Source of the DNA: Chiloscyllium plagiosum
Taxonomy: Eukaryota
Assembly: GCF_004010195.1 (NCBI RefSeq)
Contig: NC_057719.1
Span: 10,481,466 to 10,545,465 of the forward strand
Reading direction: 5' to 3'
Length of the DNA stretch: 64,000 nucleotides
Part shown: in pieces, positions 4,531 to 64,000 of the stretch
Position numbering within the stretch: position 1 is the stretch's first letter
Layout: each line of letters starts with the position of its first letter
Program-made: the position numbers and the translations under genes
The notes under the pieces: model-generated
What the model was told of the DNA's origin: nothing
Database searches by the model: none
The model's input: only the letters and a program-made list of their open reading frames with translations

Positions 4531-4574
4531 GGTGCAGGGAATGGATGCCAGTTGAGTAGGCTGCTTTCCCCTGG

Positions 4575-4690
4575 ACTGCAGATGCTGGAGATCAGAGTCT
4601 AGATTAGAGTGGTGCTGGAAAACCACAGCAGACCAGGCAGCATCCGAGAAGCAGGAAAATCGATGTTTTGGGCAAAAGCCCTTCATCGTC
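4575..4690 (-). mobile_element. PLE family-1 mini-element (decayed hammerhead plus tail)
   Basis: Same ~120 nt unit as 10155-10280. Confidence 0.75.
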
Positions 4691-5835: not shown

Positions 5836-6742
5836 TGGTCTGACATTTGCGTGGCGAAAATATAACTTGCCACTTGTCAGCTCAAGCCTGGATATTGTCC
5901 AGATCTTGTTTTACTTGAAAATGAACTGTTTCACTATCTGAGAAGTTACGAATGGTGATGTACATTGTGCAATCACCGGCATTCATCCTCACTTCTGACC
6001 TTATGAACGAGGGAAGGTCATTGATGAAGCAGCTGAAGGTGGTTGGGCCTAGGACTCCACCCTGAGGAACTCCTGCAGAGATGTCCTGGAGCTGAAATGA
6101 CTGACCTCCAACAATCACAACCATATTCCCATGTGCCAGGTATGACTCCAACCAGTGAAGAGTTTGTCTCCAGATACATATTGATTTCAGTTTTGCTCGT
6201 ACTCCTTGCTGCCACACTCTGTCAAACACGGCCTTGATATCAAGGGTTGTCACTGTCACCTCACCTTAAGGGCAAATGCTGGAAAATTGGATTAGAATAG
6301 TTGGATTATTGTTGATTGGGACTGACTTAGATGGGCCTTTTCCTATACTGCAGGTGTCGATGACTGTAATTCTCCATCTGTCTTGGAGCGGTTTTCGGCC
6401 CAATGCCCACTTACTTGGCGGTCTGGCCAAAGGATCTGCAAGGTTCTAGTAAAACAAGTTCACTCAAGTTGGGAGGAAGAAGACAACTTAGCCAGGATTA
6501 TAAGGCATGGATGAAAGTGGCTGAGGAAGTCAGTAGTAGGAGTGCAATTCCGGTCCCCATAAAACCCCTAAGCTGGAAACAAAGACAGAATTTAGCATCC
6601 TGTCAGTGAGCAGTAAATTGATAACCATGAGACAGGTATGGTCATCTACTTTTGATGGGAGGATGTGGTTCAGGAGGCTGCAGATGATAACAGTTAAAAA
6701 TCCCACAACACCAGGTTATAGTACAACAGGTTTATTTGGAAG

Positions 6743-6777
6743 TACTAGCTTTCGGAGCATCGCTCCTTCATCAGGTG
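6743..6777 (-). ncRNA. Minimal hammerhead ribozyme motif
   Basis: CAC CUGAUGA A GGAGC-GAU-GCUCC GAA AGCU A GU: intact core, perfect 5-bp stem II, palindromic helix III. Confidence 0.75.
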
Positions 6778-6792
6778 ATTCATCAGGACAAC

Positions 6793-6827
6793 CACCTGAT
6801 GAAGAAGCAGCGCTCCGAAAGTTAGTG
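6793..6827 (+). ncRNA. Minimal hammerhead ribozyme motif (one stem II mismatch)
   Basis: CAC CUGAUGA A GAAGC-AGC-GCUCC GAA AGUU A GUG; helix I CAC/GUG. Confidence 0.65.
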
Positions 6828-7299
6828 CTTCCAAATAAACCTGTTGGACTATAACCTGGTGTTGTGGGATTTTTAACTTTGTCCACCCCAGTCCAACACC
6901 TGCACCTCCAAATGATGACAACAGTGATCTGCTTTAATATCTTGAGCTTCCTGATATATCAGTGTTCAGACATGTCAAGATGGCAGATTCTCCATTAGTA
7001 AGACATTGAGGAGCTGAACAGTCATTTGTTTGTATGTTTCCTTCAATTCTGTTCCAAGGAAAACTAGAAAAGGGCAAGATTTGATTCGGACTCAGACCTG
7101 ACATGAATTTCAGACACTGTCCACCATCGTGCTCCCAAATCTGTCTCCACTGGATTTGGAAAATGCTACCCATTGTGTGTTAAATACTTAAAAACTGTAA
7201 CTTGTAATTTTGGCTTTCAGAAGTATTTGTATCCAATTAAGCAATTACACATAAAAATGGCACTGCATTTTCTTTTAGGGAGTGTAACTATCTCTGGTG

Positions 7300-10070: not shown

Positions 10071-10154
10071 TGCAAATATTTTGAACTCTGTTCTCCAGAG
10101 GATGATGGAAGCTCAGTCTCACAATACGTTTATAGTAGAGGTTGATGGATTTCT

Positions 10155-10280
10155 AGGAGACAGTGAGATCTGCAGATGCTGGAGATCAGAGTTGAGAATG
10201 TGTTGCTGGAAAAGGACAGCAGTTCAGGCAGCATCTGAGGAGCAAGAGATTCGACGTTTCGGGCTGGAGGCCTTCATCAG
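10155..10280 (-). mobile_element. PLE family-1 mini-element starting at a hammerhead core
   Basis: 11-bp TSD GATGGATTTCT (10144-10154 / 10281-10291); 5' end reads CUGAUGA A GGCC-UCCA-GCCC GAAACGUC. Confidence 0.85.
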
Positions 10281-11059
10281 GATGGATTTCTGATTACCAA
10301 TGGTGTAAAGGACCATGGGGATCATCTGAGTAAAGGCATCAAAATGTTTGATCAGCCATGATTGCATTAAATCAATGGGCTGAGTGGCCTATTGCTGTTC
10401 CACTATTCATGTGGGGCATAAAATTTCAAATATTCAAAATCATCTGAAGAAAGAAATGTCTCCTTCTCTCAGTCCTAAATGATCAACTCCTTTTTACAGA
10501 AGCTGCACCCCATGTTGTAGGTTACACAGCTGGGGAACATCACTCAGTGTCTAACCAGTCAGGCCTCTTCAAAATCTCGTATGTTTATATGTGATAACTT
10601 CTCATTCTTTCAACTTTAGTCAGTGTAGCTCCAATTTACTCACCCTTTTATCATAGGACAACTCAACCCAAGAGCCAATCAAATGAACCTTTACTCCATC
10701 CAAGTAGATTCTTCATTGAAAAGGTTGCTATATTTTGGTGAAGAGGAAGGCAGATGTTAATCATGCTGCGAGTTCAGGAATCAGCTGACTTAAAGAAAAG
10801 CCAATCCCGCATCCAGATAATGCCATGGGTTAACCAGGATGACAGGGGAATTCCCACCCACAGTGGGAGAAAGACCAACCCTCAAAAGCTGCAAACAATC
10901 TGAGTGGGCAGCAGCTCTACCAGTCTCAGCAGCTCCAGAACTGAGTAGTGGGCACTGCTGGAACTGCAGGCAAACCCCCACAGGTCTTCCATGGATCCCA
11001 GAACTCAAAACACCTCTTGCTGTTCGGGAATAGACAAAGTCAGATGTCACATGACACCA

Positions 11060-18381: not shown

Positions 18382-20036
18382 ATAATTCTGTTAGTTTTAA
18401 AATAGTGATGGAAAAGGATAGACCAGATCTAAAAGTTGAAGTTCTAAATTGGAGAAAGGCCAATTTTGACGGTATTAGGCAAGATCTTTCAAAAGCTGAT
18501 TGGGGCAGATGTTCGCAGTTAAAGGGACGGTTGGAAAATGAGAAGCCTTCAGAAATGAGACAAGAATCCAGAAAAAGTATATTCCTGTCAGGGTGAAAGG
18601 GAAGGCTGGTAGGTAGAGGGAATGTTGGATGACTAAAGAAATTGAGGGTTTGGTTACGAAAAAGAAGGAAGCGTACGTAAGGTATAGACAGGATAGATCG
18701 AGTGATTCCTAAGAAGAGTAGAAAGGAAGTAGGAGTACACTTAAGAGGGAAATCAGGAGGGCAAAAAGGGGACACGAGATAGCTTTGGCAAATAGAATTA
18801 AGGAAAATCCAAAGGGTTTTTACAAATACATTAAGGACAAATGGGTAACTAGGGAGAAAATAGGGCCCCTCAAAGATCAGCAAGGCAGCCTTTGTGTGGA
18901 ACCGCAGAAAATGGGGGAGATACGAAATGAATATTTTGCATCAGTATTTATTGTGGAAAAGGATATGGAAGATATAGACTGTAGGGAAATAAATCGTGAC
19001 ACCTTGAAAAATGTCCATATTACAGAGGAGGAAGTGCTGGATGCCTTGAAACGCATAAAGGTGGATAAATCCCCAGGACATGATCAGGTGTACCCTGGAA
19101 TTCTGTGGGAAGCTAGAGAAGTGATTGCTGGGCCTCTTGCTGAGATATTTGTATCATCGATCGTGACAAGTGAGGTGCCAGAAGAGTGAAGGTTGGCAAA
19201 CGTGGTGCCACTGTTTAAGAAGGGCACTGTTAAAGACAAGCCAGGGAACTATAGACTGATGAGCCTGACCTCAGTGGTGGGCAAGTTATTGGAGGGAATC
19301 CTGAGGGACAGGATGTACATGTATTTGGAAAGGCAAGGACTGATAGGGATAGCAACATGGCTTTGTGCATGGGAAATCATGTCTCACAAACTTGATTGAG
19401 TTTTTTGAAGTAGTAACAAAGAGGATTGATGAGGGCAGAGCAGTAGACATGACCTATATGGACTTCAGTAAGGCATTCGACAAGGTTCCCCATGGGAGAC
19501 TGGTTAGCTAGATTAGATCTCATGGAATACGGGGAGAACTAGCCATCTGGATACAGAACTGGTTCAAAGGTAGAAGACAGAGGGTGGTGGTGGAGGGTTG
19601 TTTTTCAGACTGTAGGCCTGTGACCAGTGGAGTGCCACAAGGATTGGTGCTGGGTCCTCTACTTTTTGTCATTTACATAAATGATATGGATGCGAGCATA
19701 AGAGGTATAGTTGCAGAAGATACCAAAATTGGAGGTGTGGTGGACAGTGAAGAAGGTTACCTCAGATTACAATGGGATCTTGATCACATGGGTCAATGGG
19801 CTGAGAAGTGGCAGATGGAGTTTAAGTTAAATAAATGCGAGGTGCTGTATTTTGGGAAAGCAAATCTTAGCAGGACTTATACACTTAATGGTAAGGTCCT
19901 AGGGAGTGTTGCTGAACAAAGAGACCTTGGAGTGCAGGTTCATAGCTCCTTGAAAGTGGAGTGGCGGGTATGTAGGATAGTGAAGAAGGCGTTTGGTATG
20001 CTTTCCTTTATTGGTCAGAGTATTGAGTACAGGAGT

Positions 20037-20190
20037 NNNNNNNNNNNNNNNNNNNNNNNNNNNNNNNNNNNNNNNNNNNNNNNNNNNNNNNNNNNNNNNN
20101 NNNNNNNNNNNNNNNNNNNNNNNNNNNNNNNNNNNNNNNNNNNNNNNNNNNNNNNNNNNNNNNNNNNNNNNNNNNNNNNNNNNNNNNNNN
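20037..20190. other. Assembly gap (154 N)
   Basis: N run. Confidence 1.
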
Positions 20191-21754
20191 ATAAATGCGA
20201 GGTGCTGTATTTTGGGAAAGCAAATCTTAGCAGGACTTATACACTTAATGGTAAGGTCCTAGGGAGTGTTGCTGAACAAAGAGACCTTGGAGTGCAGGTT
20301 CATAGCTCCTTGAAAGTGGAGTTGCGGGTATGTAGGATAGTGAAGGCAGTGTCTGGTATGCTTTCCTTTATTAGTCAGAGTATTGAGTACAGGAGTTGGG
20401 AAGTCATGTTGCAGCTGTACAGGTCATTGGTTAGGCCACTGATGGAATATTGCATGCAATTCTGGTCTCCTTCCTATCAGAAAGATGTTGTGAAATGTGA
20501 AAGGGTTCAGAAAAGATTTACAAGGATGCTGCCAGGGTTGGAGGATTTGACCTATAAGGAGAGGCTGAACAGGCTGGGCTGTTTTTCCTGGAGCGTCGGA
20601 GACTGAGGGGTGATCTTATGGAGGTTTACAAAATTATGAGGGGCATGGATAGGATAAATAGACAAAGTCTTTTCCCTGAGGTCGTGGAGTGGTGGAAGTG
20701 GTGGAAACTGGTACAATTGTAACATTTAAAAGGCATTTGGATGGGTTTCTGAATAGGAAGGGTTTGGAGGGATATGGGCTAGGTACTGGCAGGTGGGACT
20801 AGATTGGGTTGGGATATCTGGTCAGCATGGACGGGTTGGACCGAAGGGTCTGTTTCCATGCTGTACATCTCTATGACTATCACTAGACCATTGACCCCCT
20901 TATTAGTGCCTATGTATATTTATGATCTCTGGTGCAGAACATGCCCCCACAGTTATTCTCAACTCAAATTGAAGTTACACATCTGGATTTCCTACCATGA
21001 CAATACTACTTCCATACCTCAAAGAAAAGTTATTTGATGATAGGCATAATTTCCAACTCTCTGTCTGCATAGTTCACAAAGCTCGCATTTTATTGCACAA
21101 TAATAATACATGCTCTGATATACATTCAATCAAAAGCAACTTAAACACTCTGCAATACAGAAATGGAATGAAAGACTGGAATCGTAATTTGAGAAGATTA
21201 GTCTAAAATAAATATTATGGATCGGAGCTGGTAATAAATATGTCTTCCGTGATTACATACTTGAATACTGCGATCAACATTCGACCACTGACTGGAGTTC
21301 TTAATGAATTTTTATTTAGAATGGTTTCTATGTCTGTAATAAGACACCAACTGAAACATGATTTCAGGCAGTGACAGCAAGTGCAGCAACAGTAGGATTG
21401 TTCAAAAAGTATATTGATGCTTTGAGAGCTGCTCCTCTTTTCTGCTCATCACATTTAGCTACAATTATAAACATTTGCGACAAAGAGTAAACATAAAAAG
21501 ATAATTATACATTGCCCATAATCACACTATTGAGCTTGAAAAATAGGCTTTGATGTATCCTCAAGTGCTCAGTATCCAATCTACATACAAATGCCAATCT
21601 ACAGTACCTTTTGAATTCAGATCCATAATGTATTACGGGCTAAATACAAAAGGCACTGATCACTATTTTAATGTACTGCATGATGAGAGAATTTTTTGGC
21701 AAATTGAGAACAAAGTACAATTTCATTTTTCCCCAACAATTCCACTCGTGTCTT

Positions 21755-27669: not shown

Positions 27670-28200
27670 ATATTGAGAGAGGGTTGTATAGCTGGACGAG
27701 TAATCCAGAAGCCAACTGCATGTATGATCCGGAGCCATCGGTTCAACTCCCATCAAGCCAAAGAGAATTTAAATTCAGTTAATTATGGAAATCTGGAATA
27801 AAAAATTGGCAGCAGCCAAAGCAACTGTGAGGTCTACCACAGTGCCATCAAAACCCAACGCGTTGAATAAAGCTTTTTCAGAAAAGAAACCTACAGTGCT
27901 AATCTTGTTTATCTGCTAGGTAACTCCAGAGCCAACAGTAATACAATTGACTTATAATTGCCCTTTGAAATGGTCTGGTGTATACAAGCAGAAGGCTGGA
28001 AGAACACAGCAAGCCAGGCAGAAGAAGGTGGAGAAGTCAACATTTCGGGAGTAACCCTTCTTCAGGAAGATCTAGCAAACCATTAATGCTGCCTAAACTG
28101 TTGGCACAAAATTTCAAAGAGGTGACACACCACCTTCTCAAGGACAGTTAGGGATGAGCAATAAATGCGTGTTTACCAGTGATGCTCTGATCACAGAATA
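27670..28200 (+). mobile_element. Decayed MetaSINE-like element split by a PLE mini-element (~27980-28068, minus)
   Basis: AATTTAAATTCA...CTTATAATTGCCC body; insert carries CUGAAGA A GGG-UUACU-CCC GAAAUGUU at 28037-28067. Confidence 0.6.
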
Positions 28201-32310: not shown

Positions 32311-32410
32311 CTGAAGATGGGTCACTGGACTCGAAACGTTAACCTTGCCTTTTCCCACAGATGCTGCCAGACCTGCTGAGGTTCTCCTGCAATTTCGATT
32401 TTTGGATTTT
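32311..32410 (+). mobile_element. PLE family-4 mini-element starting at a hammerhead core
   Basis: CUGAAGA U GGGUC-ACUG-GACUC GAAACGUU AAC, then CAGATGCTGCCAGACCTGCTGAG tail. Confidence 0.75.
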
Positions 32411-38051: not shown

Positions 38052-38350
38052 AGATGAAAGTGAGGACTGCAGATGCTGGAGAGTCAGAGTTGAGAGTGTG
38101 GTGCTGGAAAAGCACAAGTCAGGCAGCATCTGACGAGCAGGAGAATCGACTTTTTGGGCAGAAGCCCTTCATCAGAAGGGGGCCGATGCAGAGGGTAACA
38201 GATTGACATTGAGATAGAACAATGCCAACTGACGGAACAGACATTACTTGGGCCTAATGATCTACTCCTCTTCTGTCCCCCTGGATCCAATGTGGATTTA
38301 AGGTGAGTGCATTGGATTGTGGGAACGGTTCAACAATGATGTGACTTCGT
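38052..38350 (-). mobile_element. Chimeric insertion: PLE family-1 mini-element plus captured local sequence
   Basis: 15-bp TSD TATATTAAGCCAACC (38037-38051 / 38351-38365). Confidence 0.8.
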
Positions 38351-39162
38351 TATATTAAGCCAACCCTGAGGAAAGAGAGAGATCTTAAGGAGCATATTAA
38401 AGAAGATGAGAGAGAAATTTTGAGAGAGAACTTCAGAGCCGAGTCCTCGACAGTGGAGTGATGCTAAGTGAAATCACAGAAAGCACCAGCCTTGGGAGAA
38501 CAGAGAAATCACAGAGGATATTGAAGTGGAGGAGTAAATGGACTGAGGTCATGGATGAATTTGAAAACAGAGCTGAGAGTTTTAAATTCAATGCTTTTCC
38601 AGATTGTCACAGGTTACAAGAGTGATAACTGTTTGGGACTTGGACCACTGTAGAATATGGGAAACAAAGTTTTGTGTACACTTAAGTTTACAGGAGGTGG
38701 AAGGCTGGCCAGGTGAACGTTAGAATCATTGAGTCCATACGTTACAAAGTCATGGCTAACAGGATTCCAATAGCAGATGGACTGAGGAAGAAATCAAATT
38801 GAGGTAACATTACAGAAGTATTATCTGGGTTGTGGAGATAATGAGATGGGAACTTTTATTTATGGTCAAGGTTCGAGGTTAAGGACTGTCTGGTTCAACC
38901 TCAGGGTGTGGCTATGGAGAGGGATGGAGTTAGTTACTATGAAATGGAACTTGTCTTTTGATACACCTATCCTGACTGGATTCTATCAGTCTCAAATTTA
39001 AAAGTTGCAATCATTCCAGCCTTCAGAGACATTTTGGAAGCAGGATACATTAACTTTCTATTTAAATTTAATTGGTTGGTGATGAACAAATCAGAAAGAG
39101 GGAAATGAAAGTTGCAGAACCAATGATTGTCCATATGAATGATACTTGGACACTTTTATCTA

Positions 39163-39290
39163 TCTGAAGAAGTATCACTGGACCTGAAACGTTAACTCTC
39201 ATTTCTCTCCACAGATGCTGCCAGACCTGCTGAGTTCCTCCAGCAATTTTGGTTTTTGTTTCAGATTTCCAGCATCTGCAATTCTTTCTT
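39163..39290 (+). mobile_element. PLE family-4 mini-element
   Basis: CTGAAGA...GAAACGTTAAC plus tail, as at 32311. Confidence 0.75.
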
Positions 39291-44556: not shown

Positions 44557-45264
44557 AAAACCTTGCATTCAGATAGTGCCTTTTGCAAACCCAGGGCCTC
44601 CTAATGCATTTTATAGTCAATTCGTCCTTTTGAAATGTAGTCGCTATTGTAAGGTGGGAACCCAATTCGCAAATTTACTCACAGTGAAACGTCACAAACA
44701 ACTATGTGATATTGACAACATAATCTATTTCTATCATCCCCGGCCAATATTTCCGTCTCAGTCAACACCACCAAAATAGATACAGAATCAGAAATTTCTG
44801 GAAAAACTCAGTGCGTCTGGCTAATCTAGTTCTGAAGCAGGATTAGTGGACCCAATCACTACATCTGATCTATAATTAGCATTCTTATTCCAGATGAAGG
44901 GCTTATGCCCAAAACGTCAACTCTCCTGCTCCGAGGATGCTGTCTGACATACTGTGCTTTTCCTGATTGCAGGCATATATCTCTGATTACAGGTATATAT
45001 CTCTATAGTTATCGTTGAAATTATAACTTTTCGACTATAATTAGCAATGTCCTATTGACCAGACAATCCATTTCAGTAACAAAAAAGAACAAAGAAATAC
45101 GGATGCTGGCAATCAGAATCGACACCTATGGAGTGAAAGGAGAGTTGATGTTTTGGATCCATTCTTCAGAAGTAGATAGCCAGACCTGCTGCGTTTTTCC
45201 AGCAATTTCTGATTTTGAATCTATTCCAGTGATGTTGACTAAGCAAATTATTGGCCAGGGTCCT

Positions 45265-45362
45265 GATTCTCCTGCTTCAAGGATGCTGCCTGACCTGCTG
45301 CGCTTTTCCAGCAATACATTTTTCAGCTCTGATCTCCAGCATCTGCAGTCCACATTTTCTCC
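45265..45362 (+). mobile_element. PLE family-1 tail abutting the satellite start
   Basis: GATTCTCCTGCT...CTCTGATCTCCAGCATCTGCAGTCC. Confidence 0.75.
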
Positions 45363-45724
45363 TACTGGTATGTATCTCTGATTACAGGTGTGTTTCTGAT
45401 TACAGGCGTGTTTCTGATTACAGATATGCATCTCTCTCTACATCTATGTATCTCTGACTACAGGTGAGTGTCTTTGATTTCAGGTATGCATTTCTGATCA
45501 GAGATATCTAACGCTGATTACAGGTATGTATCCCTGATCACAGGTATGTATCTCTGATTACAGGTATGTAACTCTGATTACACATATGTGTCGCTGATTG
45601 AAGGTATGCCTCTCACATGACAGGTATGCATCTCTGATTAAAGGTATGTATCTCTGAATACAGGTATGTAACTCTGACTACAGGTATGTATAGCTGATTA
45701 CAGATATGTATCTCTGACAGCATG

Positions 45725-46716
45725 TTTCAAGAAGATTTGTAGCTCAGGTTAAGGTTCTGGATGTAGGTTTGCTCGCTGTGCTGGAAGGCCCATATTCAGA
45801 TATCTCATCACCCTACTAGGTAACATCTCCTCGATGCTGCCTGAATTGCTGTGCTCTTCCAGCACCATTGATCCAGAATCTGGTTTCCAGCATCTGCAGT
45901 CATTGTTTTTAACATCTTCAGTGAGCCTCCAGACGAGGCGCTGCTGGTGTTTCCTGATTTCTATTTATATGTTTGGGTTTCCTTGGGTTGGTGATGTCAT
46001 TTCCTGTGGTGATGTCATTTCCTATGGTGATATCATTTCATGTTTTTTTTTCTCTCAGCCGGTGGTAAATCGGGTCCAGGTCATTGTGTTTGTTGAGTTC
46101 CAGTTGGAATGCCATGTTTTTGGAATTCTCGTGCATGTCTCTGTTTGGCTTGTCCTAGGATGGACGTGTTGTCCCAGTCGAAGTGCTGTCATTCCTTATC
46201 TGTATGTAAGGACACTAGTGAGACAGGGTCATGTCGTTTGGTGGCTAGTTTTCTGCCTGTTTGTCCGAGCCACCAGGATACATGAACATCAACTCGCCAC
46301 AAAACGACATGACCCTGTCTCACTAGTATCCTTACATACAGATGAGGAAGGGCACCACTTCGATGGGACAACACATCCATCCTAGGACAAACCAAACAGA
46401 GATGCACACGAGAATTCCTAGAAGCATGACATTCCAACCGGAACTCTATCAACAAACACATTGACTTGGATCCCTTTACCACACCCTGAGAGAAAAAAAA
46501 AACAACAGAATATGACATCACCATAGGAAATAACGTCCCCACAGGAAATGACATCACCAACCCGAGGAAACCAAGGGACTCTCAAACAGAATACATCAAC
46601 AGAAAGCAGGAAACACCAACAGTGTTTCATCTGGAGGCTCACTGAAGATGTTGCCTAGTACGGTGATGAAACATCTGAAAATGAACCTTCCAGCTCAGTG
46701 AGCAAAACTGCATCCA
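45725..46716. mobile_element. PLE family 2 as a large inverted duplication of its 3' end
   Basis: 45725-46260 (minus) mirrors 46265-46716 (plus); ATKRHDPVSLVSLHTD coding remnant; 18-bp GGTGATGTCATTTCCTRT subrepeats; hammerhead at 46639-46678. Confidence 0.85.
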
Positions 46717-49700
46717 TGTGTCTCTGATTACAGGCATATATCTCTGATTACAGATATATATCTCTAATTACTCATGTGCATCTCTAATTACAGATATGCA
46801 TCTCTTTTACAGGTATGTATCTTTGATTAAAAGTATGCATCTTTCATTACAGGTATGCATCCCTCATTATAGGTATGCATCTCTCCTTACAATTGTGGAT
46901 CTCTGAATACAGGTATGTGTCTCTGATTACAAATATGTATCTCTGATTATAGACATATTTTTCTGATTACAGGTATGTATCTCTGATTGCACGTATACAT
47001 CTCTGATTACAGGTCTGTATCTCTGATTACAGGTATATATGTCTGATTGCAGGTATGTGTCGTTGATTACAGGGATGTATCTCTGACTACAGGTATGCAT
47101 CTCTCATTACAGGATGTATCTCCGATTACAGGTATGCATCTCTGGTTACAGGCAAGTATCTCTGATTACGGGTGTGAATCACAAATTGCCGGTACAAGTC
47201 TCTAATTATATGTATGCATCTCTGATTATAGTTCTGCATCTCTGATTACAGGTATGTTTCTCTAATTGCTGGTGTGCATCTCTGGTGTCAGGTATGTATC
47301 TCTGATTACAGTTATTGATCTCTGATTATAGGTATATATCTCTGATTACAGGTATGTGTGTCTGATTAACAGATATGCATCTCAGATTACAGAAATGCAT
47401 CTCTCATTACCAGTATGTATCTCTGATTACAGTTATGTGTCTCTGATTACAAATATGTATCTCTGATTACAGGTATGTGTTTCTGATTATAGGTATGTAT
47501 CTCTGATTACAGGTATGTATCCCTGATTAGAAGTGTGCATCTCTTATCACAGATATGTATTGCTGATTACAGGTATGTGTCTCTGATTACAAATATGTCT
47601 CTCTGATTACAGGTGTTTTTCTGATTACAGGTATGTATGTCTGATTACAGGTATATATCTCTGATTACAGGTATGTGTCTCTGATTACCAGTATGTATCT
47701 CTGAATACAGGTATGTGTCTCCGATTTCAGGTATACATCTCAGAATACAGGCAAGTATCTCTGATTACAGGTGTGTATCTCTAATTGCTGGTATGTGTCT
47801 CTAATTATATGTACGAGTCTCTGATTAGAGGTATGCATCTCTAGTGTCAGGTATGTATTTCTGATTACAGGTAGTAGTCTTGGAGAACAGGTATGTATCT
47901 CTGATTACAGGTATGTCTCTGATTACAGGTATGCATCTCGGATTACAAGTATTCTTCTTTGGTGAACGGTATGTATCTCTGATTACAGTTATATATTTCT
48001 GATTGCATGTATGCATCTCTGATTGCAGATATGTGTCTCTGATGAAAGATATATGTCTCTGATTACAGGAATGTGTCTCCGATTACAGGCAAATATCTAT
48101 GATTACAGGTATATACCTCAGATTACAGGTGTGTATCACTAATTGCTGGTATGCGTCTCTAATTATATGAACATGTCTCTTATTGCAGGTCTGTGTCTCT
48201 GGTTACAGGTATGTATCTCAGATTACAGGTATGTATCCCTGATTACAGATATGCATCTCTGAATACAGGCATGCATCTCTGATTACAGGAATGCATCTTG
48301 GATTACAGGTATGCATTTCTCATGCAGGTATGTATCCCTGATTACAGGTATGCATCTCTGAATACAGGCACGTACCTCTGAGAAAAAGGTGTGTATCTTT
48401 GATTCCTGGTATACTTCTTTGATTACAGGTAGGTATCTCATATTTCAGGTGTGCATCTCTGATTCCAGGTATGTGGGTCCTTTTGCATGTATGTGTCTCT
48501 AATTGCCGGTATGCATCTCTGATTATAGGTATGTGTCTCTGATTGCAGGTATATATCTCTGATTAGAGGTATGCATCTCTGATTTCAGTTATGTATCTCT
48601 GATCACAGGTATGCATCTCTGATTGCAGGTATGTGTCTCTGGTTGCAGGTATGTGTCCCTGATTAGAGGTATGCATCTCTGATTGCAGGTATGTGTCTCT
48701 GATTACAGGTATGTGTCTCTGATTACATGTATGCGTCTCTGAATACAGGTATGTGTCTCTGATTGCAGATATGTGACTCCGATTGCAGGTATGTGTCTCT
48801 GATTGCATGCAGGCATCTCTGATTGTAGGTATGTATCTCTGATTGCAGGTATGAGTCTTTGATTGCAGGTATGCATCTTTGATTGCAGCTATGTGTCTCT
48901 GATTGCATATATGTGTCTGTGATTGCAGGTATGTGTCTCTGATTATAGGTATGCATCTCTGATTGCAGGTATGTGTCTCTGATGGCAGGTATGTGTCTCT
49001 GTTTGCAGGTATGCGTCTCTGATTTCAGGTATGTGTCTCTGATTAGAGGTATGCGTCTCTGATTGCAGGTATGTGTCTCTGATGCAGATATGCATCTCTG
49101 ATTGCAGGTAAGTGTCTCTGATTGCTGGTATGTGTGTCTGATTGCAGGTATGCGTCTCTGATTGCTGGTATGTGTCTCTGATTGGATATATCTGTCTCTG
49201 ATTGCAGGTATGTGTCTCTGATTATAGGTATGCATCTCTGATTGCAGGTATGTGTCTCTGATGGCAGGTATGTGTCTCTGATTGCATATATGTGTCTCTG
49301 ATTGCAGGTATGTGTCTTTGATTACAGGTATGCATCTCTGATTGCAGGTATGTGTCTCTGATGGCAGGTATGTGTCTCTGATTGCATATATGTGTCTCTG
49401 ATTGCAGGTATGTGTCTCTGATTATAGGTATGCATCTCTGATTGCAGGTATGTGTCTCTGATGGCAGGTATGTGTCTCTGTTTGCAGGTATGCGTCTCTG
49501 ATTTCAGGTATGTGTCTCTGATTGCATATATCTGTCTCTGATTGCAGGTATGTGTCTCTGATTATAGGTATGCATCTCTGATTGCAGGTATGTGTCTCTG
49601 ATGGCAGGTATGTGTCTCTGTTTGCAGGTATGCGTCTCTGATTTCAGGTATGTGTCTCTGATTAGAGGTATGCGTCTCTGATTGCAGGTATGTGTCTCTG

Positions 49701-50009
49701 ATTGCAGGTATTTGTCCCTGATTGCAGATATGCATCTCTGATTGCAGGTATGTGTCTCTGATTGCTGGTATGTGTGTCTGATTGCAGGTATGTGTCTCTG
49801 ATTGCAGGTATGTGTCTCTGATTGCTGGTATGTGTCTCTGATTGCATGTATGTGTCTCTGATTGCAGGTATGTGTCTCTGATTGCAGGTACGCATCTCTG
49901 ATCGCTGTTATGCGAGTCTGATGACAGTATTGTGTCTCTGATTGCGGGTATGCGAATCCAATTGTTGGTATGTTTCTCTGATTACAGGTATGTGTCTCTG
50001 ATTGCAGGT

Positions 50010-50142
50010 ATAGAACATAGAACATAGAAGAATACAGCGCAGTACAGGCCCTTTGGCCCTCGATGTTGCGCCGATCCAAGCCCACCGAACCTATACTAAC
50101 CCACTATCCTCCATATACCTATCCAATGCCCGCTTAAATGCC
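50010..50142 (-). mobile_element. Short young CR1 3' tail in the satellite
   Basis: (TAGAACA)n terminus; CpGs retained. Confidence 0.75.
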
Positions 50143-53125
50143 CTCTGATTACAGGTATGAGTCTCTGATTACAGGAATGTGTCTCTGATTGCAGATATCT
50201 GTCTCTGATTACAAGAATGTGTCTTAGATTGCTGGTATTTGTCTCTGGTTGCATGTATGCATCTCAGATTACAGGTATGCATCTCTGATTGCAGGTATGC
50301 GTCTCTGATTGCAGATATGCATCTCTGATTGCAGATATGCGTCTTTGATTGCTAGTATGTGTCTCTGATTACAGGTATGTTTCTCTGATTACAGATATGC
50401 ATCTCAGATTGCAGGTTTGTGTCTCTGATTGCAAGTATGCATCTCTGATTGCATGTATGTATCTCTGATTACAGGTATGCATATCTGATTGCAGGTATGT
50501 GTCTCTGATTGCAGGTATGCATCTCTGATTACATGCATGCGTCTCTGATTGCAGGTATGCGTCTCTGATTGCTGGTATGTGTCTCGGATTGCAGGTATGA
50601 GTCTCTGATTGCATGTATGTGTCTCTGATTGCCGGTATGCATCTCTGATTGCAGGTATGTGTCTCTGATTGCATGTATGTATCTCTGATTGCATGTATGT
50701 ATCTCTGATTACAGGTATGCATCTCTGATTGCAGGTATGAGTGTCTGATTACAGGTATGTTTCTCTGATTACAGATATGCATCTCTGATTGCACGTTTGT
50801 GACTGTGATTGCAGGTACGCATCTCTGATTGCATGTATGTATCTCTGATTACAGATATGCATCTCTGATTGCAGGTACGTGTCTCTGATTGCAGGTATGC
50901 ATCTCTGATTACATGCATGCGTCTCTGATTGCAAGTATGCGTCTCTGATTGCTGGTATGTGTCTCGGATTGCAGGTATGAGTCTCTGATTGCCGGTATGC
51001 ATCTCTGATTGCATGTAGGTGTCTCTCATTGCAGGTATGTGTCTCTGATTGCAGGTATGTTTCTCTGACTGCATGTATGTGTCTCTGATTGTAGGTATGA
51101 GTCTCTGATTGCATGTATGTGCCTCTGATTGCAGGTATGCATCTCTGATTGCAGGTATGCATCTCTGATTTCAGTGAAGTGTCTCTGATTGCAGGTATGC
51201 GTCTCTGATTGCAGGTATGCGTCTCTGATTGCAGGTATGTGCCTCTGATTGCTGGTATACATCTCTGATTGCATGTATGCATCTCTGATTGCCGGTATGT
51301 GTCTCCGATGACACATATGTGTCTCTGATTGCAGGTATGCATCTCTGAATGCAGTTATGTGTCTCTGATTACAGGTATGTGTCTCTGATTGCAGGTATGA
51401 GTCTCTGATTGCCGGTATGTGTCGCTGATTGCAGATATGCGTCTCTGATGACACGTGTGTGTCTCTGATTGTGGGTATGCATCTCTGATTACAGGTATGC
51501 GTCTCTGATTGCAGGTATGTGACTCTGATTGCAAGTATACGTCTTTGATTGCAGGTATGTGTGTCTGATTACAGGTATGTGTCTCTGACTACATGTATGC
51601 ATCTCTGATTACATGTATGTGTCTCTGATTGCAGGTATGTGTTTCTGATTGCAGGTATACATCTCTGATTGCCGGTATGTGTCTCTGATTGCAGGTATAC
51701 ATCTCTGATTGCATGCATGCATCTCTGATTGCAGATATGCATCTCTGATGACACGTGTGTGTCTCTGATTGTGGCTATGCATCTCTGATTGCAGGTATGT
51801 GTCTCTGATTACAGGTATGCGCCTCTGATTGCAGGTATATGACTCTGATTGCAGGTATGCGTCTTTGATTGCAGGTATGTGTCTCTGAGGTATATGACTC
51901 TGATTGCAGGTATGCGTCTTTGATTGCAGGTATGTGTCTCTGACTACATGTATGCATCTCTGATTACAGGTATGTGTTTCTGATTGCTGATATGCGACTC
52001 TGATTGCATGTATGCGTCTCTGATTGCAGGTATCCATCTCTGATTGCAGATATGTGTCTCTGATTACAGGAATGTGTCTCTGATTACAGGTATGTGTCTC
52101 TGATCGCAGGTATGAGTCTCTGATTGCAGGTATGTGTCTCTGATTACAGGTATGTGTCTCTGATTGCAGGTATGCATCTCTGATTGCAGGTATGTGTCTC
52201 TGATTGCATGTGTGTGTCTCTGATTGCCGGTATGTGTCTCTGATTGCAGGTATACATCTCTGATAGCATGCATGCGTCTCTGATTGCAGATATGCGTCTC
52301 TGATGACACGGGTGTATCTCTGATTGTGGGTATGCGTCTCTGATTGCAGGTATGTGTGTCTGATTACAGGTATCCTTCTCTGATTGCAGATATGTGTCTC
52401 TGATTACAGGAATGTGTCTCTGATTGCATGTATGTGTCTCTGATTACAGATATGTGCCTCTGTTTGCATGTATGCATCTCTGATTGCCGGTATGTGTCTC
52501 CGATGACACGTATGTGTCTCTGATTGCGAGTATGTATCTCTGAATGCAGTTATGTGTCTCTGATTACAGGTATGTGTCTCTGATCGCAGGTATGAGTCTC
52601 TGATTGCAGGTATGTGTCTCTGATTACAGGTATGTGTCTCTGATTGCAGGTATGCATCTCTGATTGCAGGTATGTGTTTCTGATTGCTGGTATGCGTCTC
52701 TGATTTCATGTATGCGTCTCTGATTGCAGATATGCATCTCTGATTGCAGGTATGTGTCTCTGGTTGCATGTATGCATCTGAGATTACAGGTATGTGTCTC
52801 TGATTGCATGTATGTGTCTCTGATTGCATGTATGTATCTCTGATTACAGATATGCATCTCAGATTGCAGGTATGTGTCTCTGATTACAGGTATGTTTCTC
52901 TGATTACAGATATGCATTTCTGATTGCACGTTTGTGTCTCTGATTGCAGGTACGCATCTCTGATTGCATGTATGTATCTCTGATTACAGGTATGCATCTC
53001 TGATTGCAGGTATGTGTCTTTGACTGCATGTATGTGTCTCTGATTGTAGGTATGAGTCTCTGATCGCATGTATGTGCCTCTAATTGCAGGTCTGCATCTC
53101 TGATTGCAGGTATGCATCTCTGATT

Positions 53126-53625
53126 NNNNNNNNNNNNNNNNNNNNNNNNNNNNNNNNNNNNNNNNNNNNNNNNNNNNNNNNNNNNNNNNNNNNNNNNNNN
53201 NNNNNNNNNNNNNNNNNNNNNNNNNNNNNNNNNNNNNNNNNNNNNNNNNNNNNNNNNNNNNNNNNNNNNNNNNNNNNNNNNNNNNNNNNNNNNNNNNNNN
53301 NNNNNNNNNNNNNNNNNNNNNNNNNNNNNNNNNNNNNNNNNNNNNNNNNNNNNNNNNNNNNNNNNNNNNNNNNNNNNNNNNNNNNNNNNNNNNNNNNNNN
53401 NNNNNNNNNNNNNNNNNNNNNNNNNNNNNNNNNNNNNNNNNNNNNNNNNNNNNNNNNNNNNNNNNNNNNNNNNNNNNNNNNNNNNNNNNNNNNNNNNNNN
53501 NNNNNNNNNNNNNNNNNNNNNNNNNNNNNNNNNNNNNNNNNNNNNNNNNNNNNNNNNNNNNNNNNNNNNNNNNNNNNNNNNNNNNNNNNNNNNNNNNNNN
53601 NNNNNNNNNNNNNNNNNNNNNNNNN
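53126..53625. other. Assembly gap (exactly 500 N)
   Basis: N run. Confidence 1.
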
Positions 53626-56600
53626 TCTCTGATTGCAGGTATGTGTCTCTGATTGCTGTTATACATCTCTGATTGCATGTATGCATCTCTGATTGCCGGT
53701 ATGTGTCTCCGATGACACGTATCTGTCTCCGATGACACGTATGTGTCTCTGATTGCGGGTATGCATCTCTGAGTGCAGTTATGTGTCTCTGGTTACAGGT
53801 ATGTGTCTCTGATTGCAGCTATGAGTCTCTGATTGCAGGTATGTGTCTGTGATTGTGGGTATGCATCTCTGATTGCAGGTATGTGTCTCTGATTACAGGT
53901 ATGCGTCTCTGATTGCAGGTATGTGACTCTGATTGCAGGTATGCGTCTTTGATTGCAGGTATGTGTGTCTGGTTACAGGTATGTGTCTCTGACTACATGT
54001 ATGCATCTCTGATTACAGGTATGTTTCTCAGATTGCATGTATGCGTCTCTGATTGCAGATATGCATCTCTGATTGCAGGTATCCGTATCTGATTGCAGAT
54101 ATGTGTCTCTGATTACAGGAATGTGTCTCTGATTGCATATATGTGTCTCTGATTGCAGGTATATATCTCTGATTGCATGTATTTGTCTTTGATTGCAGGT
54201 ACGTGTCTCTGAAAACACGTATGTTTCTCTGATTGTGGGTATGCATCTCTGATTGCAGGTATGTGTCTCTGATTACAGATATGCATCTCTGATTGTGGGT
54301 ATGCATCTCTCATTGCAGGTATGCATCTTTGATTACAGGTATGTGTCTCTGATTGCAGGTATGTGTCTCTGATTGCATGTTTGCATCTCTGATTGCAGGT
54401 TTGTGCCTCTAATTGCAGGTATGCATCCCTGATTACAGGTATATGTTTCTGATTACAGGTATGTGTCTCTGATTGCATGTATGTGTCTCTGATTGCAGGT
54501 TTGTGCCTCTGATTGCAGGTATGCATCCCTGATTACAGATATATGTTTCTGATTACAGGTATATAACTCAGATTGCAGGTATGCATCTCTGATTGCAGAT
54601 ATGTGTCTCTGATTGCAGGTATGTGTCTCTGATTACAGGTATGTATCTCTGATTGCAGGTATGTGTCACTGATTGCAGGTTTGTGCCTCTGATTGCAGGT
54701 ATGCATCCCTGATTACAGGTATATGTTTCTGATTACAGGTATATAACTCAGATTGCAGGTATGCATCTCTATGTTTACAGATATGTATTTCTGATTACAG
54801 GTATGTCTCTCTTATTACAGGTATACATCTCTGAATATAGGCATGTATCTCTGATTATAGGTGTGTATCTCAGATTTCAGCTATGCATTTCTGATTTCTG
54901 GTCTGTATCTCTGATTTCAGATATGCACCCCTGATTACAGGTATGTGGCTCTGATTACACGTATGTATTTCTAACTGAATATATGCGTCTCTGATTGCAG
55001 GTATGTGTCTCTGATTACAGGTATATAGCTCGGATTACAGGTCTGTATCTCTGATTACAGGTTTGTATCTCTAATTTCAGGTATGCATCTTGGATTACAG
55101 GTGTGTATCACTGATTACAGGTTTGTATCGCTAATTTCAGGTATGCATCTTGGATTACAGGTATGTATCTCTGATTACCGGTTTGTATCTCTAATTTCAG
55201 GTATGCATCTTGGATTACAGGTGTGTATCTCTGATTACAGGCATGCATCTCTGGTGATCGGTATGTACTTCTGATTACAGGTATTTGTCTCGGATTGCAG
55301 GTCTGTATCCATGATTTCAGGTATTTATCTCTGATTACAGGTATGTGTCACTAATTACAGGTATGCATCTCAGATTGCAGGTATGCATCTCTCATTGCAG
55401 GTATGTTTATCTGATTACAGGTATGTATCACTGACTACAGGTGGGTGTCTCTTATTACAGGTATGTGTTTCTGTTTACAGGTATGTAACTCAGATTACAG
55501 CTATGCCTCTCTGATTGCAGAGATGTATCTCTGATTACAGCTATATATCTCTGGTAACAGGTATGCATCTCTGATTAGAAGTATGTGTTTCTGATTACAG
55601 GTATGCATCTCTGATTACAGGTTTATATCTCATTACAGGTATATACCTCTGATTACAGGCATGTGTCTCTGAATACAGATTTGTGTCTCTGATTGCACGT
55701 ATGTTTCTCTGATTACAGGTATGCATCTCTGATTACAGATATGTATCTCTGATTACAGGAATGCATCTTTGATTAAGGCATATATCTCTTATTACCAGTA
55801 TGTATCTCTGAATACAGGTACATATCTCTGATTACTGGTGTGTGTTTGAGATTACAGGTAGGCATCTCTGATTACAACTGTATATCTCTTATTACAGGTA
55901 TGTATCTCTGATTATAGGTATATATCTCTGATTATGGGTATGTGTCTCTTATTACAGATATGCATCTCTGATTATATGTTTATATCTCTGATAACTGGAA
56001 TATATGCCTGATTACAGGTATGAATCCCTGATTACAGGTATGCATCTCTGATTACAGGAATGTGTCTCTGATTACAGGTATGTATCTCTGATTACAGGTA
56101 TGTATCTCAGATTACAGCTATGCCTCTCTGATTGCAGAGATGTATCTCTGATTACAGCTATATATCTCTGGTAACAGGTATGCATCTCTGATTAGAAGTA
56201 TGTGTTTCTGATTACAGGTATGCATCTCTGATTACAGGTTTATATCTCTGTTTAGAAGTATCTGTCTCTGATTACAGGTCTGCATCTCTGATTACAGATT
56301 TGCATCTCTGTTTAGAAGTATGTGTCTCTGATTATCGGTATGCATCTCTGATTACAAGTTTGCATCTCTGATTACGGGTCTACATCTCTGATTACAGGAA
56401 TGTATCTTTGATTACAGGTATGCATCTATGATTGCACATATATAACTCAGATTACAGGTATATATCTCTGATTACAGATATGCATCTCTGATTAGAAATA
56501 TTTGTCTCTGATTACCGATATGCATCTCTGCTTACAGGTATGCATCTTTGAATACAGGTATGAGTCTCTGATTACAGGCATAAGTCTCTGATACAGGTAT

Positions 56601-56729
56601 GCCTCTCTGATTAGACTTATATATCTCTGATTACTGGTATGTGTCTCTGATTACAGGTATCTATCTCTGATTATGGGTATGCGTCTCTGAATACAGATAT
56701 GTGTCTCTGATTACAGGTATGTATCTCTG

Positions 56730-57020
56730 TTGTTGTGGTTCTGTTCGCCGAGCTGGAAATTTTTGTTGCAAACATTTCGTCCCCTGTCTAGGTGACATCC
56801 TCAGTGCTTGGGAGCCTCCTGCGAAGCGCTTCTGTGGTGTTTCCTCCGGCATTTATAGTGGCCTGTCCCTGCCGCTTCCGGTTGTCAGTTTCAGCTGTCC
56901 GCTGTAGTGGCCGGTATATTGGGTCCAGGTCGATGTGTTTGTTGATGGAGTTTGTGGATGAGTGCCATGCTTCTAGGAATTCCCTGGCTGTTCTTTGTTT
57001 GGCTTGCCCTTTCATGGTAG
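56730..57020 (-). mobile_element. PLE family-2b 3' end with hammerhead (56768-56807)
   Basis: ORF 56788-57015 GQAKQRTAREFLEAWHSSTNSINKHIDLDPIY. Confidence 0.85.
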
Positions 57021-61082: not shown

Positions 61083-61960
61083 TTACCTTCGCAGCCCAAG
61101 GGAATGAAACTTGGAGAGGTCAGTCCACGTGGACGAGGACAGATTGTTGGTGATCATCACTCCCAGGAACTTGACACTCTTGGCAATCTCCCCCTCAGCA
61201 CCATTGATGCAGTCAGGGGCATGCTCTTCACTCAGCTTCCTGAAGTCAATGACCAGCTCCTTTGCCTTGTTGACGTTGATGGAGAGATTGTTGACTTTAT
61301 TCCCTGCCACTAAGCACTGAGTCTCTTTCCTATAGTCTGTCTTGTCATTGTTTGAGATCCAGCCTATAATGGTAGTGTCATCAGCAAACCTGTAAATGGA
61401 GTTGGGGCAGAATTTGGCCATTCAGTTGTGAGTGAATAGAAGTATAGTAGAGGGCTAAGTACACAGCCTTGTGAGGCACCAGTGTTGAGGATTGTGGTGG
61501 AGAAAATGTTTTTCATCTATTCTTATGGATTGCGATCTATGGTTGGGAAGTCAAGGATTTAGTAACAGAGGGGGGAGCCAAGACTAGGTCTCAGAGTTTA
61601 GAGATGAGTTTGTTTGTAACTATGTTGTTGCAGGCAGACCTATAGTCAAAAAGTAGAAAGCTGACATGGTATCCTTGTTCTCCAAACGCTTCAGCAATTA
61701 GTGTCGGGCCAGGGAATTGGTATCAAGATTAAAGTGGTGCTGGAAAAGCACAGCAGGTCAGACAGCATCCAAGGTGCAGGAAAATCAATGTTTCAGGCAA
61801 AAGCCCTTCATCAGGAACCTTTTTGCCCAAAACGTTGATTTTCCTGCTCCTCGGATGCTGCCTGAACTGTTTTGTGTTTCCAGCACCACTCTAATCTTGA
61901 CTCTAATCTCCAGCATCTGCAGTACCCACTTCAATCCAGGGAAATGGCATCTGTTGTAGA
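61083..61960 (-). mobile_element. Rex1/Babar-type LINE RT fragment
   Basis: RFADDTTIIGWISNNDKTDYR...NNLSINVNKAKELVIDFRK. Confidence 0.8.
61717..61935. mobile_element. Foldback PLE family-1 mini-element
   Basis: Inverted arms ~61724-61803 / 61820-61899; TSD CCAGGGAA (61709-61716 / 61936-61943); minus-strand core CUGAUGA A GGGC-UUUU-GCCU GAAAC at 61784-61817. Confidence 0.8.
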
Positions 61961-61969
61961 CCCAATAGG

Positions 61970-64000
61970 TGAATTACAAAGGCTGCGTATTCAGCCCCCT
62001 ACTAATTGGTGGTGGGGGTCTGATTGTAAGTGATGGAAATGTCAGAGAATGATGCATTGGATTCGGAGTGTTCGAGAGGTTGGTGAGGTGGTACGTGAGG
62101 ACAAAGGGGACTCTATCCTTATTGTGGTTGAGTGTAGGGTAGTTGAGAGCAGAAGTGTGGAAGGTGGGGAAGGTGTGGTTGAGGGCATCTTGAATTACTG
62201 AGGAGGCAAAATTATGGTCCCCAAAGTAGGAGGACATCTGGGATGGCCTGAAGAGGAACACCTCAGCTCGTGAAGTGTTCAAACTCCTCGTGAGAGCATG
62301 AGGCAGCATCAATACAGTCATCCATGTAGCGGAGGAAAAGGTGGGGGATAGTGCCAGTGTAGTTGTGGAAGAGGAACTGTTCTACGAATCCTCCAAATGG
62401 ACTGGCATAGCTTGGGCCCAGAAGAAAGTGAGAACTGCAGATGGTGAAGCTCAGAGTCAAGAGTGTGATGCTGGAAAAGCACAACAGGTCAGGCAGCATC
62501 CGAGGAGCAGGAAAATCAAAGTTTTGGGCATAAGTCCTTCATCAGGAATGTTGGATCTGTCTGGTTTCATTTTTTGGAATTTGATCTTATTTATTTTTCC
62601 AGATTTCTGAAGTTTTTTTTGAGTAGGCCTATGATTCAGTTCTCGAGTTGTGGGGTTGGGGGTCTATCGCCGCTTGTTGGTAAGTGTTGGTATCTGCAAG
62701 TAGTGCGTTCACCTTCTCAATGCAGATTCTTTGATGTAAAATGACTATCAAGCATCCTTTGTCTACAGGTAGGTTAACAATATTTTTTATCTTTTTTTTA
62801 GTTTTACAGCACTTTCCTTGTGTTTTGAGTGTGTTTCCTTCCTTTTACCTGTTAATGTTGATGCGACTGTCAATCTGATTGCTGGGTTTCCTCTGTGAGT
62901 TGGTTGTCTTTCAGTGTTGTTTCTAATGCTGCTAAGAAATCGGTCTTGCCCACATCCTGGTAGTTGTAATTTAATCCTCTTACTAAGGTGGATTTTTCAG
63001 TGTCTGTTAAGGGTTGGTCAGATAATTTTTTTTATCCATGCTTCTGTGTTGTCTGTGTTGTTATTGTGTGTAAGTTTGTCTCGGCTTTTCTGCAGGTCTA
63101 GTCTTTTTCCATTTTTTGTGTTTGTCGCTGTCTAATGTCGATGGCTTGTTGTACTCTCACTGGTATCCTTACTTACAGATGAGGAAGGACACCACTTCAC
63201 CTGGGACAACACATCCATCCTAGGACAAGCCAAACAAAGACATGCATGAGAATTCCTAGAAGCATGTCATTCCAACCGGAACTCTATCAACAAACACATT
63301 GACTTGGATCCCATTTACCTTGCCGCTATCTTGCTTGCACCCATGGCTACCCCTTTGGTTTGTAGGAAGTAGGAGGAATCAAATGAAAAATTGTTGAAGG
63401 TGAGGATCAGTTCTGTCAGGCAAATGAATTGGGCTGAGGGGAGAGGAAGAAGCAGAGGGCTTTTAGGCCCTCCGAGTGGGGGATGCAGGTGTAATGGACT
63501 GTACGTCCATGGTGAAGATGAGGTGTTGGGGGCTGGGGAGTTGAAAGTTTTGGAAGAGGTGGAGGGCATGGGTTGTGTCTTGAATGTAGGTGGGGGTTAT
63601 TGGACGAAAGGGGAAAGAATGGAGGAGAGGTAAGAGGAAATGAGCTTGATGGGGCAGGAGCAGGCAGAGACAAAGAGGAAGTCAGATTTATGGATTTTGA
63701 GTAGGAGATAGAAATGGACAGTGCATGGTTGGGGAACTGTCAGGTTAGAGGCGGTAGATGGGAGATTTCCTGAAGTGATGAGGTCGTTGATGGTCTGGTA
63801 GATGATCGTTTGGCGATCAGCGGTGGGGAACAGTCATAGGGAAGAAAGGAGGAGGTGTGACAGAGTTAGCAGCTGGCTTCAGAGATATAGATGTCAGTTC
63901 ACCATACTAACACACTATTACTGCCTTATTGGTGGGTTTAATAGTGAGGTTGGGTTGGAGCGAAGGGATTAGAAGGTGGCACGTTCCGATGGGAAATGTT
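61970..64000 (-). mobile_element. Penelope-like RT region split by nested insertions
   Basis: LILTFNNFSFDSSYFLQTKGVAMG (~63340-63420) continues as GPSYAS...LFLRYMDDCI (62420-62310). Confidence 0.85.
62425..63318. mobile_element. Nested PLE pieces: family-1 mini-element (62425-62550, minus), PLE pre-RT region (62551-63150, minus, probably family 2), family-2 C-terminus (63153-63318, plus)
   Basis: DKG...ALLADTNTYQQ-like remnant; 63153-63318 matches 60231-60395. Confidence 0.7.

Follow-up and report, generated by a model that had tools for sequence, protein, structure and literature searches.

Short solitary hammerhead copies in the genome of Chiloscyllium plagiosum and their possible origin as run-off copies of a capped PLE leader

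EN+ PLEs encode an RT with a C-terminal GIY-YIG domain and a Neptune/Nematis-type Cys linker. They occur as partial tandems and head-to-head arms with a tail on one arm, flanked by duplications of ~10 bp, and their pLTR carries a putative TATA box and Inr (PMC8557442, PMC3846280); all of these features are shared by the element analysed here. The TSS has been located inside the pLTR (PMC2377424, PMC8557442), and PLE replication, the transcription start and the role of the hammerhead have been named as open questions (PMC8557442, PMC11167929). For the inverted structures, self-priming on an antisense template was proposed, and a sense template was left open (PMC3846280). In vitro work on the anole element PAc reported two internal RT start sites, extension of both strands and the use of uncleaved RNA, and the optional tail was tied to the two start sites (PMC11167929). 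In addition, a survey of minimal hammerheads described the motif found here as occurring singly and scattered, in thousands of copies 'probably related to truncated PLEs', and already noted opposite-strand pairs like those reported below (PMC4209133).

Herein, we analysed a short insert of this kind in a window of 64,000 nt (contig NC_057719.1 of assembly GCF_004010195.1, positions 10,481,466 to 10,545,465) together with its relatives in the genome. Positions within the element are numbered throughout from C3 of CUGANGA (=0).

The focal insert and related copies in the window

The focal insert and its parts were located as follows.

10155..10280, minus strand: focal insert, positions 0 to +125, 126 nt, a minimal hammerhead with PLE leader and tail, family A
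10281..10291, minus strand: 5' copy of the 11-bp target-site duplication
10144..10154, minus strand: 3' copy of the 11-bp target-site duplication
10253..10280, minus strand: minimal type I hammerhead core of the focal copy (CUGAUGA, stem II, GAAAC-GUC; architecture as in PMC4209133)
10155..10189, minus strand: optional tail of ~35 nt that separates the 3' ends near +90 from those near +126, a bimodal distribution (compare PMC11167929)

The original prediction, made from the letters of the window, described a perfect 11-bp duplication and a start exactly at CUGAUGA. The duplication was correct, as two identical 11-mers directly flank 10155-10280. The exact start needs a caveat: because the final 2 nt of the upstream duplication match parental positions -2/-1, the insert opens with a microhomology join, which masks the end of the cDNA, and this end may have reached -2 or beyond. 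The predicted cut lies between 10253 and 10252. The hammerhead is degraded compared with those of the parents; since its helix I 5' strand is mostly absent and stem II carries a mismatch, this copy is likely inactive. Its MFE fold differs from the hammerhead fold, and an Rfam scan gave no hammerhead family match and only chance hairpin matches. A first look at the genome (3.56 Gb) yielded 3,319 candidates for the insert, of which the best 40 scored, the insert itself excluded, were 90-93% identical to it. The focal insert itself is an ordinary dead copy.

Seven other copies in the window had been cited as starting near the ribozyme core.

4574..4687, minus strand: family A short copy, start +2, without an adjacent duplication
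27988..28068, minus strand: family F short copy, start 0 to -3 (at 28065)
32311..32404, plus strand: family B short copy, start ~0 by eye (+8 by the aligner on a diverged reference)
38052..38176, minus strand: family A short copy, start 0 (at 38175)
39164..39288, plus strand: family B short copy, start ~0 by eye (+11 by the aligner on a diverged reference)
44884..44963, plus strand: family A short copy, start -7
62420..62550, minus strand: family A short copy, start -5, end +126

All seven do begin near the core, at -7 to about +2, and the cited copies do span three sequence families (A, B and F). Their description as flanked by target-site duplications was too broad, holding for one of the eight copies, because only the focal insert has an adjacent duplication, and loosely for two of the eight if 38052-38176 is counted. 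The latter is accompanied by a 15-bp duplication, but 175 nt separate the upstream copy from the element; at the flanks of the other six a search for duplications returned only chance-sized matches. In the stretch 38177-38365, the 175 nt between this upstream copy and the short element are unrelated DNA, and a jump of the RT to a different template may therefore have preceded the join.

The window held several further features. The match of a family A copy at 45265-45363 (plus strand) opens exactly at the predicted cleavage site (+28), and a family A fragment at 45827-45911 is nested, with an 8-nt duplication, in the hammerhead of a family C copy (about 45790-45921). A LINE-type RT fragment (RVT_1, E=3e-10) with an assembly gap lies at 18700-20600 (plus strand), and a long AT-skewed short-tandem-repeat array (~20-nt unit by eye) with minus-strand open frames occupies about 45300-59000.

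The parent element and the pile-up of 5' ends

The parent contains the EN C-terminus, a C-rich 3' UTR, a TATA-like box, the hammerhead, the tail and an ATG at about +163, and long copies run upstream via the C-rich region into coding sequence. The claim that a PLE RT made the copies was borne out. The parent is a PLE with an RT plus, at the C-terminus, a GIY-YIG domain in a single ORF, the organization of EN+ PLEs. It also carries a CxxxxCxxC linker; a Cys linker between RT and EN is a Neptune/Nematis-type feature (PMC8557442). Its closest protein match was a Chiloscyllium punctatum protein (89% identity). One copy (L066) is nearly full length but frameshifted. Pfam returned 0 relevant matches in five fragments of this copy and none in the EN-side fragment. 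The latter was 89% identical to protein P0001 (GIY-YIG E=2.5e-4, narrowly missing the cut-off); its identity to protein P0005 (RVT_1 and GIY-YIG above the cut-off) was 41%. An intact full-length young copy was not recovered from the assembly, which has gaps.

In 157 exact copies the tail is continuous with the start of the ORF. The hammerhead and tail thus close one unit at its 3' end and at the same time serve as 5' leader to the following one. This arrangement is the usual pLTR layout, with a pLTR that derives from a partial tandem, contains a hammerhead and overlaps the 5' leader of the ORF, together with an optional tail of 30-40 bp and inverted 5' arms. The parents of families A, B and E have a minimal type I hammerhead (CUGANGA-N, stem II, GAAAN-NUH and a short helix I), and their helix I strands differ in sequence with the pairing kept. 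Family G (L031, L032, L037 and L165) has the core variant UUGACAA, a TATAAA at -37 and frequent head-to-head pairs; the U3-A8 covariation of such a core has been described (PMC4209133).

To map the 5' ends, we took 140 evenly spaced 10-kb stretches of the genome (1.4 Mb; 1.34 Mb without N). They held 270 arms, of which 32 were dropped (edge, gap or low score). The 238 usable arms comprised 34 of other families and 204 of family A; eight of the latter lacked the tail and were dropped, leaving 196 arms with a 3' end at +60 or beyond. Among the 124 family A arms at risk, 75 ended in 0 to -8, whereas the rates on either side would predict 3.3 or 7.9. The end rate was 0.098 per nt in this interval versus 0.003 upstream and 0.007 downstream (p<1e-56), a 13-32-fold rise in hazard. 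The pile-up of 5' ends near the hammerhead core is real and far above chance, in line with the claim that they cluster beyond random truncation. The proposed pile-up check, carried out on this genome sample, gave a peak and not a smooth distribution, with its single-base mode at A(-4) instead of the core (19 arms; spread -11 to +10). Non-inverted copies alone behaved similarly (39/78 in 0 to -8). In a young family A subfamily, represented by 15,953 exact 55-mers in the genome, 22 of 30 consecutive arms started at -6 to +9.

Only three of the 196 arms ended at the cleavage site (+27 to +29). This agrees with the earlier statement that the boundary is not the cleavage product, and a cleavage-site origin of the short copies was rejected.

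The only raw RNA run with reads was X19, a poly(A) single-cell library, which gave 409 and 763 reads and no start peak, and run X20 had 0 reads on the element. In X19, 149 loose ends fell at A(-4) with mixed flanks (agreement 0.39). Such flanks fit transcribed genomic copies, and these reads repeat the boundary but do not probe the start site.

What may set the boundary

A reading absent from the original prediction is that the transcript itself may begin at the boundary. The focal insert is a short copy of the hammerhead-and-tail leader of the PLE, probably produced when the RT was primed at the 5' copy of its internal start sites on a capped mRNA and ran off the 5' end. The predicted first base of the mRNA is then also that of the hammerhead, A(-4) in families A and B and A(-8) in family E, and Pol II would start at this boundary A from a TATA plus initiator promoter at the end of the upstream pLTR. 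The best-surviving alternative, which we nevertheless hold to be unlikely, is that ordinary cDNAs, primed at the 3' end of a long RNA, halt at the ribozyme or a protein bound to it, or come off there, and then join or jump, with any extra G being non-templated.

Pol II promoters follow a TATA-to-start spacing rule and an initiator consensus. In families A, B and E, a TATA-like box lies 30-33 nt ahead of the boundary A: TTTATC/CTTATC at -34 to -37 in 6/6 long copies shown of family A, a TATA-like box at -34 to -36 in 3/6 copies of family B, and TATAAA at -38 to -40 in 5/5 copies of family E. In long copies the boundary A sits within an initiator-like TCATTC, TCAGTT or CCACAA. A stall would account for the boundary in families A and B, where the A coincides with the 5' edge of helix I, but only family E separates the two. 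There the shift to A(-8), 5 nt past helix I, was expected from the TATA spacing before inspection and was then found.

The distribution of ends bears on both readings. The ends are smeared from -11 to +10, with 11 arms at -9 to -15, which speaks against a single start and suits a stall, as do the common template jumps from the boundary. An RT stalled by the fold should pile up where it enters, from the 3' side at about +32. The ends did not peak there, at 0.006-0.009 per nt from +45 to +6, and the stop came only after the entire motif had been copied. Of the RT stop or template jump at the folded ribozyme that had been suggested, the discrete stop and jump site was found, and the stall at the fold was not supported.

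The extra G at full-length L1 5' junctions has been interpreted as a trace of the cap (PMC11702581). In family E, 1,521 copies had a non-parent base before A(-8), which was G in 61 of the first 100 by eye; among 30 loci, 9 were long copies without G, and 17 of the 21 others had G. The young family A subfamily gave 1,855 copies with a non-parent base before the boundary A. Those without a visible inverted arm, classed by eye like the family E rows and within the first 100 rows only, had G in 18/32 at the -4 boundary versus 5/39 one base downstream (Fisher p=2.5e-4, run on 38 and not 39). For a stall with a non-templated G, enrichment at -4 and not at -3 is hard to accommodate.

The flanks of individual loci were also inspected, 20 of them chosen by eye as non-inverted rows. 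At 12 non-inverted family A loci with a duplication stopping at or before A(-4), the last base was G in 10/12, and G lay outside the target duplication in 8/12. At five further family A loci, microhomology joins reach into the element and hide the end. Some inserts have G-ATTC on both arms (C1:108917182; L010). In an unselected script count, G was found in 4/14 non-inverted family A arms, a flat result from a small set that mixes older subfamilies, and in 9/17 inverted family A, 3/4 family B and 3/3 family E arms. A discrete 5' end with G is seen in the genome-wide lists of two young families, but not in the small unselected family A set. Untemplated C addition could occur at any template end, which weakens the cap reading.

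A hammerhead is also present in families C and D, along with a TATA box at -47 to -53, but no comparable 5' pile-up was found in either, including at the expected start sites (about -16 and -22). By eye, family D showed two breaks and four palindrome joins among the first 100 rows, and family C roughly 6-9 scattered breaks; the patterns used are blind to ends nearer the core, which were covered by separate 25 and 14 matches. In the genome, the patterns matched at least 19,704 times for family D and 4,015 times for family C. In the window, long copies of these two families lie at 5104, 21830, 46642, 56804 and 60535. The missing pile-up means that the capped-start model is not general for PLEs, and it is equally an argument against a generic ribozyme stall.

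Joins of the copies and comparison with known systems

The 3' ends lay near +90 or +126 (+84 or +118 in family E), and the target duplications measured roughly 10-16 bp. Nearly half of the arms (91/196) were inverted and met a second copy of the leader head to head. The 48 head-to-head pairs comprised 37 long+short, one long-long, no short-short and 10 irregular pairs. Two pairs are found in the window.

61727..61923: head-to-head family A pair, short arm -3 to +88 (minus strand), long arm to about +115 (plus strand)
6692..6913: head-to-head family E pair, plus-strand arm -8 to +118 preceded by G, minus-strand arm to +83

The arms were commonly joined through the terminal AT in a perfect palindrome, or one arm or both carried G-ATTC at the junction. 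The pairs fit a route in which each nicked strand is primed and the two run-off cDNAs are then united, and a fold-back with resolution at +90 would be an alternative route to them. Arm-versus-arm identity could not separate the two routes, because the arms are usually of one subfamily (24/41 pairs in the top tenth). An inverted junction via a shared TCAGG that skips most of the second arm (e.g., L226) occurred in ~13 of the first 100 rows, reflecting either recurrent microhomology or a copied master.

Chimeric copies were examined at 20 loci. Their templates extend into the ORF to +190 to +620, and six of the seven resolved copies nevertheless start at -3 to -5. They show an RT that reaches the boundary, jumps into the first 600 nt of the ORF and runs to the boundary again. 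These templates are difficult to reconcile with a second alternative, in which a short or prematurely ended capped transcript from truncated copies that kept their TATA box is mobilised in trans like a SINE. A supply of such copies exists, as 37/196 family A arms (~19%) extend past -30 and could keep the promoter. Moreover, 30 X19 reads of the young subfamily (L210:1557) carry poly(A) directly at +90, 10-15 nt past AATAAA, although these reads may either mark a genuine poly(A) site or stem from oligo-dT primers that annealed next to genomic copies. The anole enzyme required RNA far past the start sites (PMC11167929), which most truncated copies would not provide. Taken together, we regard a SINE-like transcript as improbable.

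It is very improbable that the boundary stems from cutting of the DNA by the endonuclease that the element encodes, or from a splice acceptor within the pLTR. The anole EN favours ATT near its own pLTR (PMC11167929) and family A begins with ATT, but families B and E begin with AGT and ACA. For splicing, there are polypyrimidine-AG motifs at about -16 to -25 in several subfamilies, and a D. virilis intron ends at helix I (PMC4209133); however, just 1/38 arms ended in the candidate zone -16 to -30 and the junctions share no common upstream exon, and a splice-acceptor origin of the short copies was rejected.

Short tandem arrays of the leader and ORF start, with periods of 194-224 nt, were observed at L312 (G000:C8:24157300-24158900), L202/L203 and L212. 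Despite these arrays and the proposed derivation of animal retrozymes from PLE pLTRs (bioRxiv 10.64898/2026.07.22.740005), a retrozyme, as a self-cleaving, circularising short RNA amplified in tandem units, is scarcely tenable, and the retrozyme-like short RNA of the original prediction is not supported: short and long copies of one subfamily carry the same tail, which speaks against an independent short RNA; dispersed monomers, such as the focal copy, and head-to-head pairs predominate; the arrays seen have unequal units, in place of regular head-to-tail units with a hammerhead each, joined by heterogeneous microhomology jumps away from the cleavage site; and the monomers are not circularly permuted and end off the cleavage site (3/196).

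For run-off from a capped leader, the anatomy and the end statistics are observed, and we infer where transcription starts, that the RNA is capped and that its 5' priming sites are used. A read-through mRNA from the hammerhead to the next pLTR would contain two sets of priming sites, one close to the cap and one at the 3' end. Use of the 3' set would give the long inserts with random truncation (about 0.003 per nt), and cap-proximal priming (+90, +126) would yield complete run-off cDNAs of 95-130 nt, often with a C opposite the cap. The cDNA end could then join the target by microhomology, as suggested for the focal insert, join a second cDNA primed from the other target strand to give a head-to-head insert, or jump to another RNA position to give a partial tandem. 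The products would lack the TATA box and are expected to be dead on arrival.

The wider proposition is that the mRNA of the vertebrate PLE families studied here starts at the first base of its own hammerhead, that the commonest product of the element is a 'strong-stop' copy of the capped leader, and that the two nicked target strands are primed one per start site and their run-off cDNAs joined head to head; we consider its chances evenly balanced. If it is true, hundreds of thousands of solitary hammerheads would be a fossil cap map of the PLE transcript, inverted pLTRs would require no antisense template, and the ribozyme would be placed where cutting strips the cap with the first ~32 nt. The genome itself would supply a PLE start site at base resolution, and one mechanism with in vitro support would cover both solitary hammerheads and head-to-head arms. 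Extrapolated from 204 arms in 1.34 Mb, family A would comprise about half a million arms, roughly half of the short type, and thus a major route of sequence gain in the host genome.

Retroviral strong-stop DNA is a short run-off product from a primer near the RNA 5' end, and the short copies described here are likened to it in this respect. Non-LTR retrozymes are similarly short, non-coding and PLE-related with a type I hammerhead (PMC7229834; bioRxiv 10.64898/2026.07.22.740005), but form tandem units of 150-450 bp that are expressed as circles (PMC7229834), whereas the present copies are monomers or pairs with a fixed 5' end that is not the cleavage site. The minimal hammerhead survey, in its available text, proposed a role for the motif in cleavage and circularisation without end mapping (PMC4209133), whereas the present inserts keep the uncleaved motif from its first base. 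In the accessible descriptions of EN+ PLEs, short arms are seen as 5'-truncated (PMC8557442, PMC3846280), whereas here about half of the arms stop at one point, with an excess of G, as would fit full copies of a capped leader in sense orientation.

The PAc element is closest in mechanism, sharing the two internal start sites that bound the tail, the extension of both target strands and a hammerhead whose cleavage is dispensable (PMC11167929). It differs in having its ATG inside the hammerhead instead of at about +163. The in vitro precedent also comes from a Poseidon-clade element, and the present parent belongs to another clade. The available PAc text does not deal with the 5' ends of RNA and inserts, and its Fig. 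S2, on how the template is covered in the genome, may reveal a like drop (PMC11167929).

Earlier work has already described this class of element and its minimal hammerhead, copies that stand alone or pair on opposite strands, the tail, and priming at internal sites (PMC4209133, PMC8557442, PMC11167929). Our literature search, which covered subscription journals and Repbase/Dfam notes thinly, found no paper mapping short copies to a capped hammerhead start. The short copies are a real by-product of a known element, and the mechanistic reading is testable and likely new. Finally, full-length LINE-1 inserts with an extra 5' G and twin priming share with them the base opposite the cap and a second priming from the other strand; in L1 the inverted parts are non-overlapping and priming is at the poly(A) tail (PMC11702581), whereas the two arms of the present pairs are copies of one leader, primed at two internal sites.
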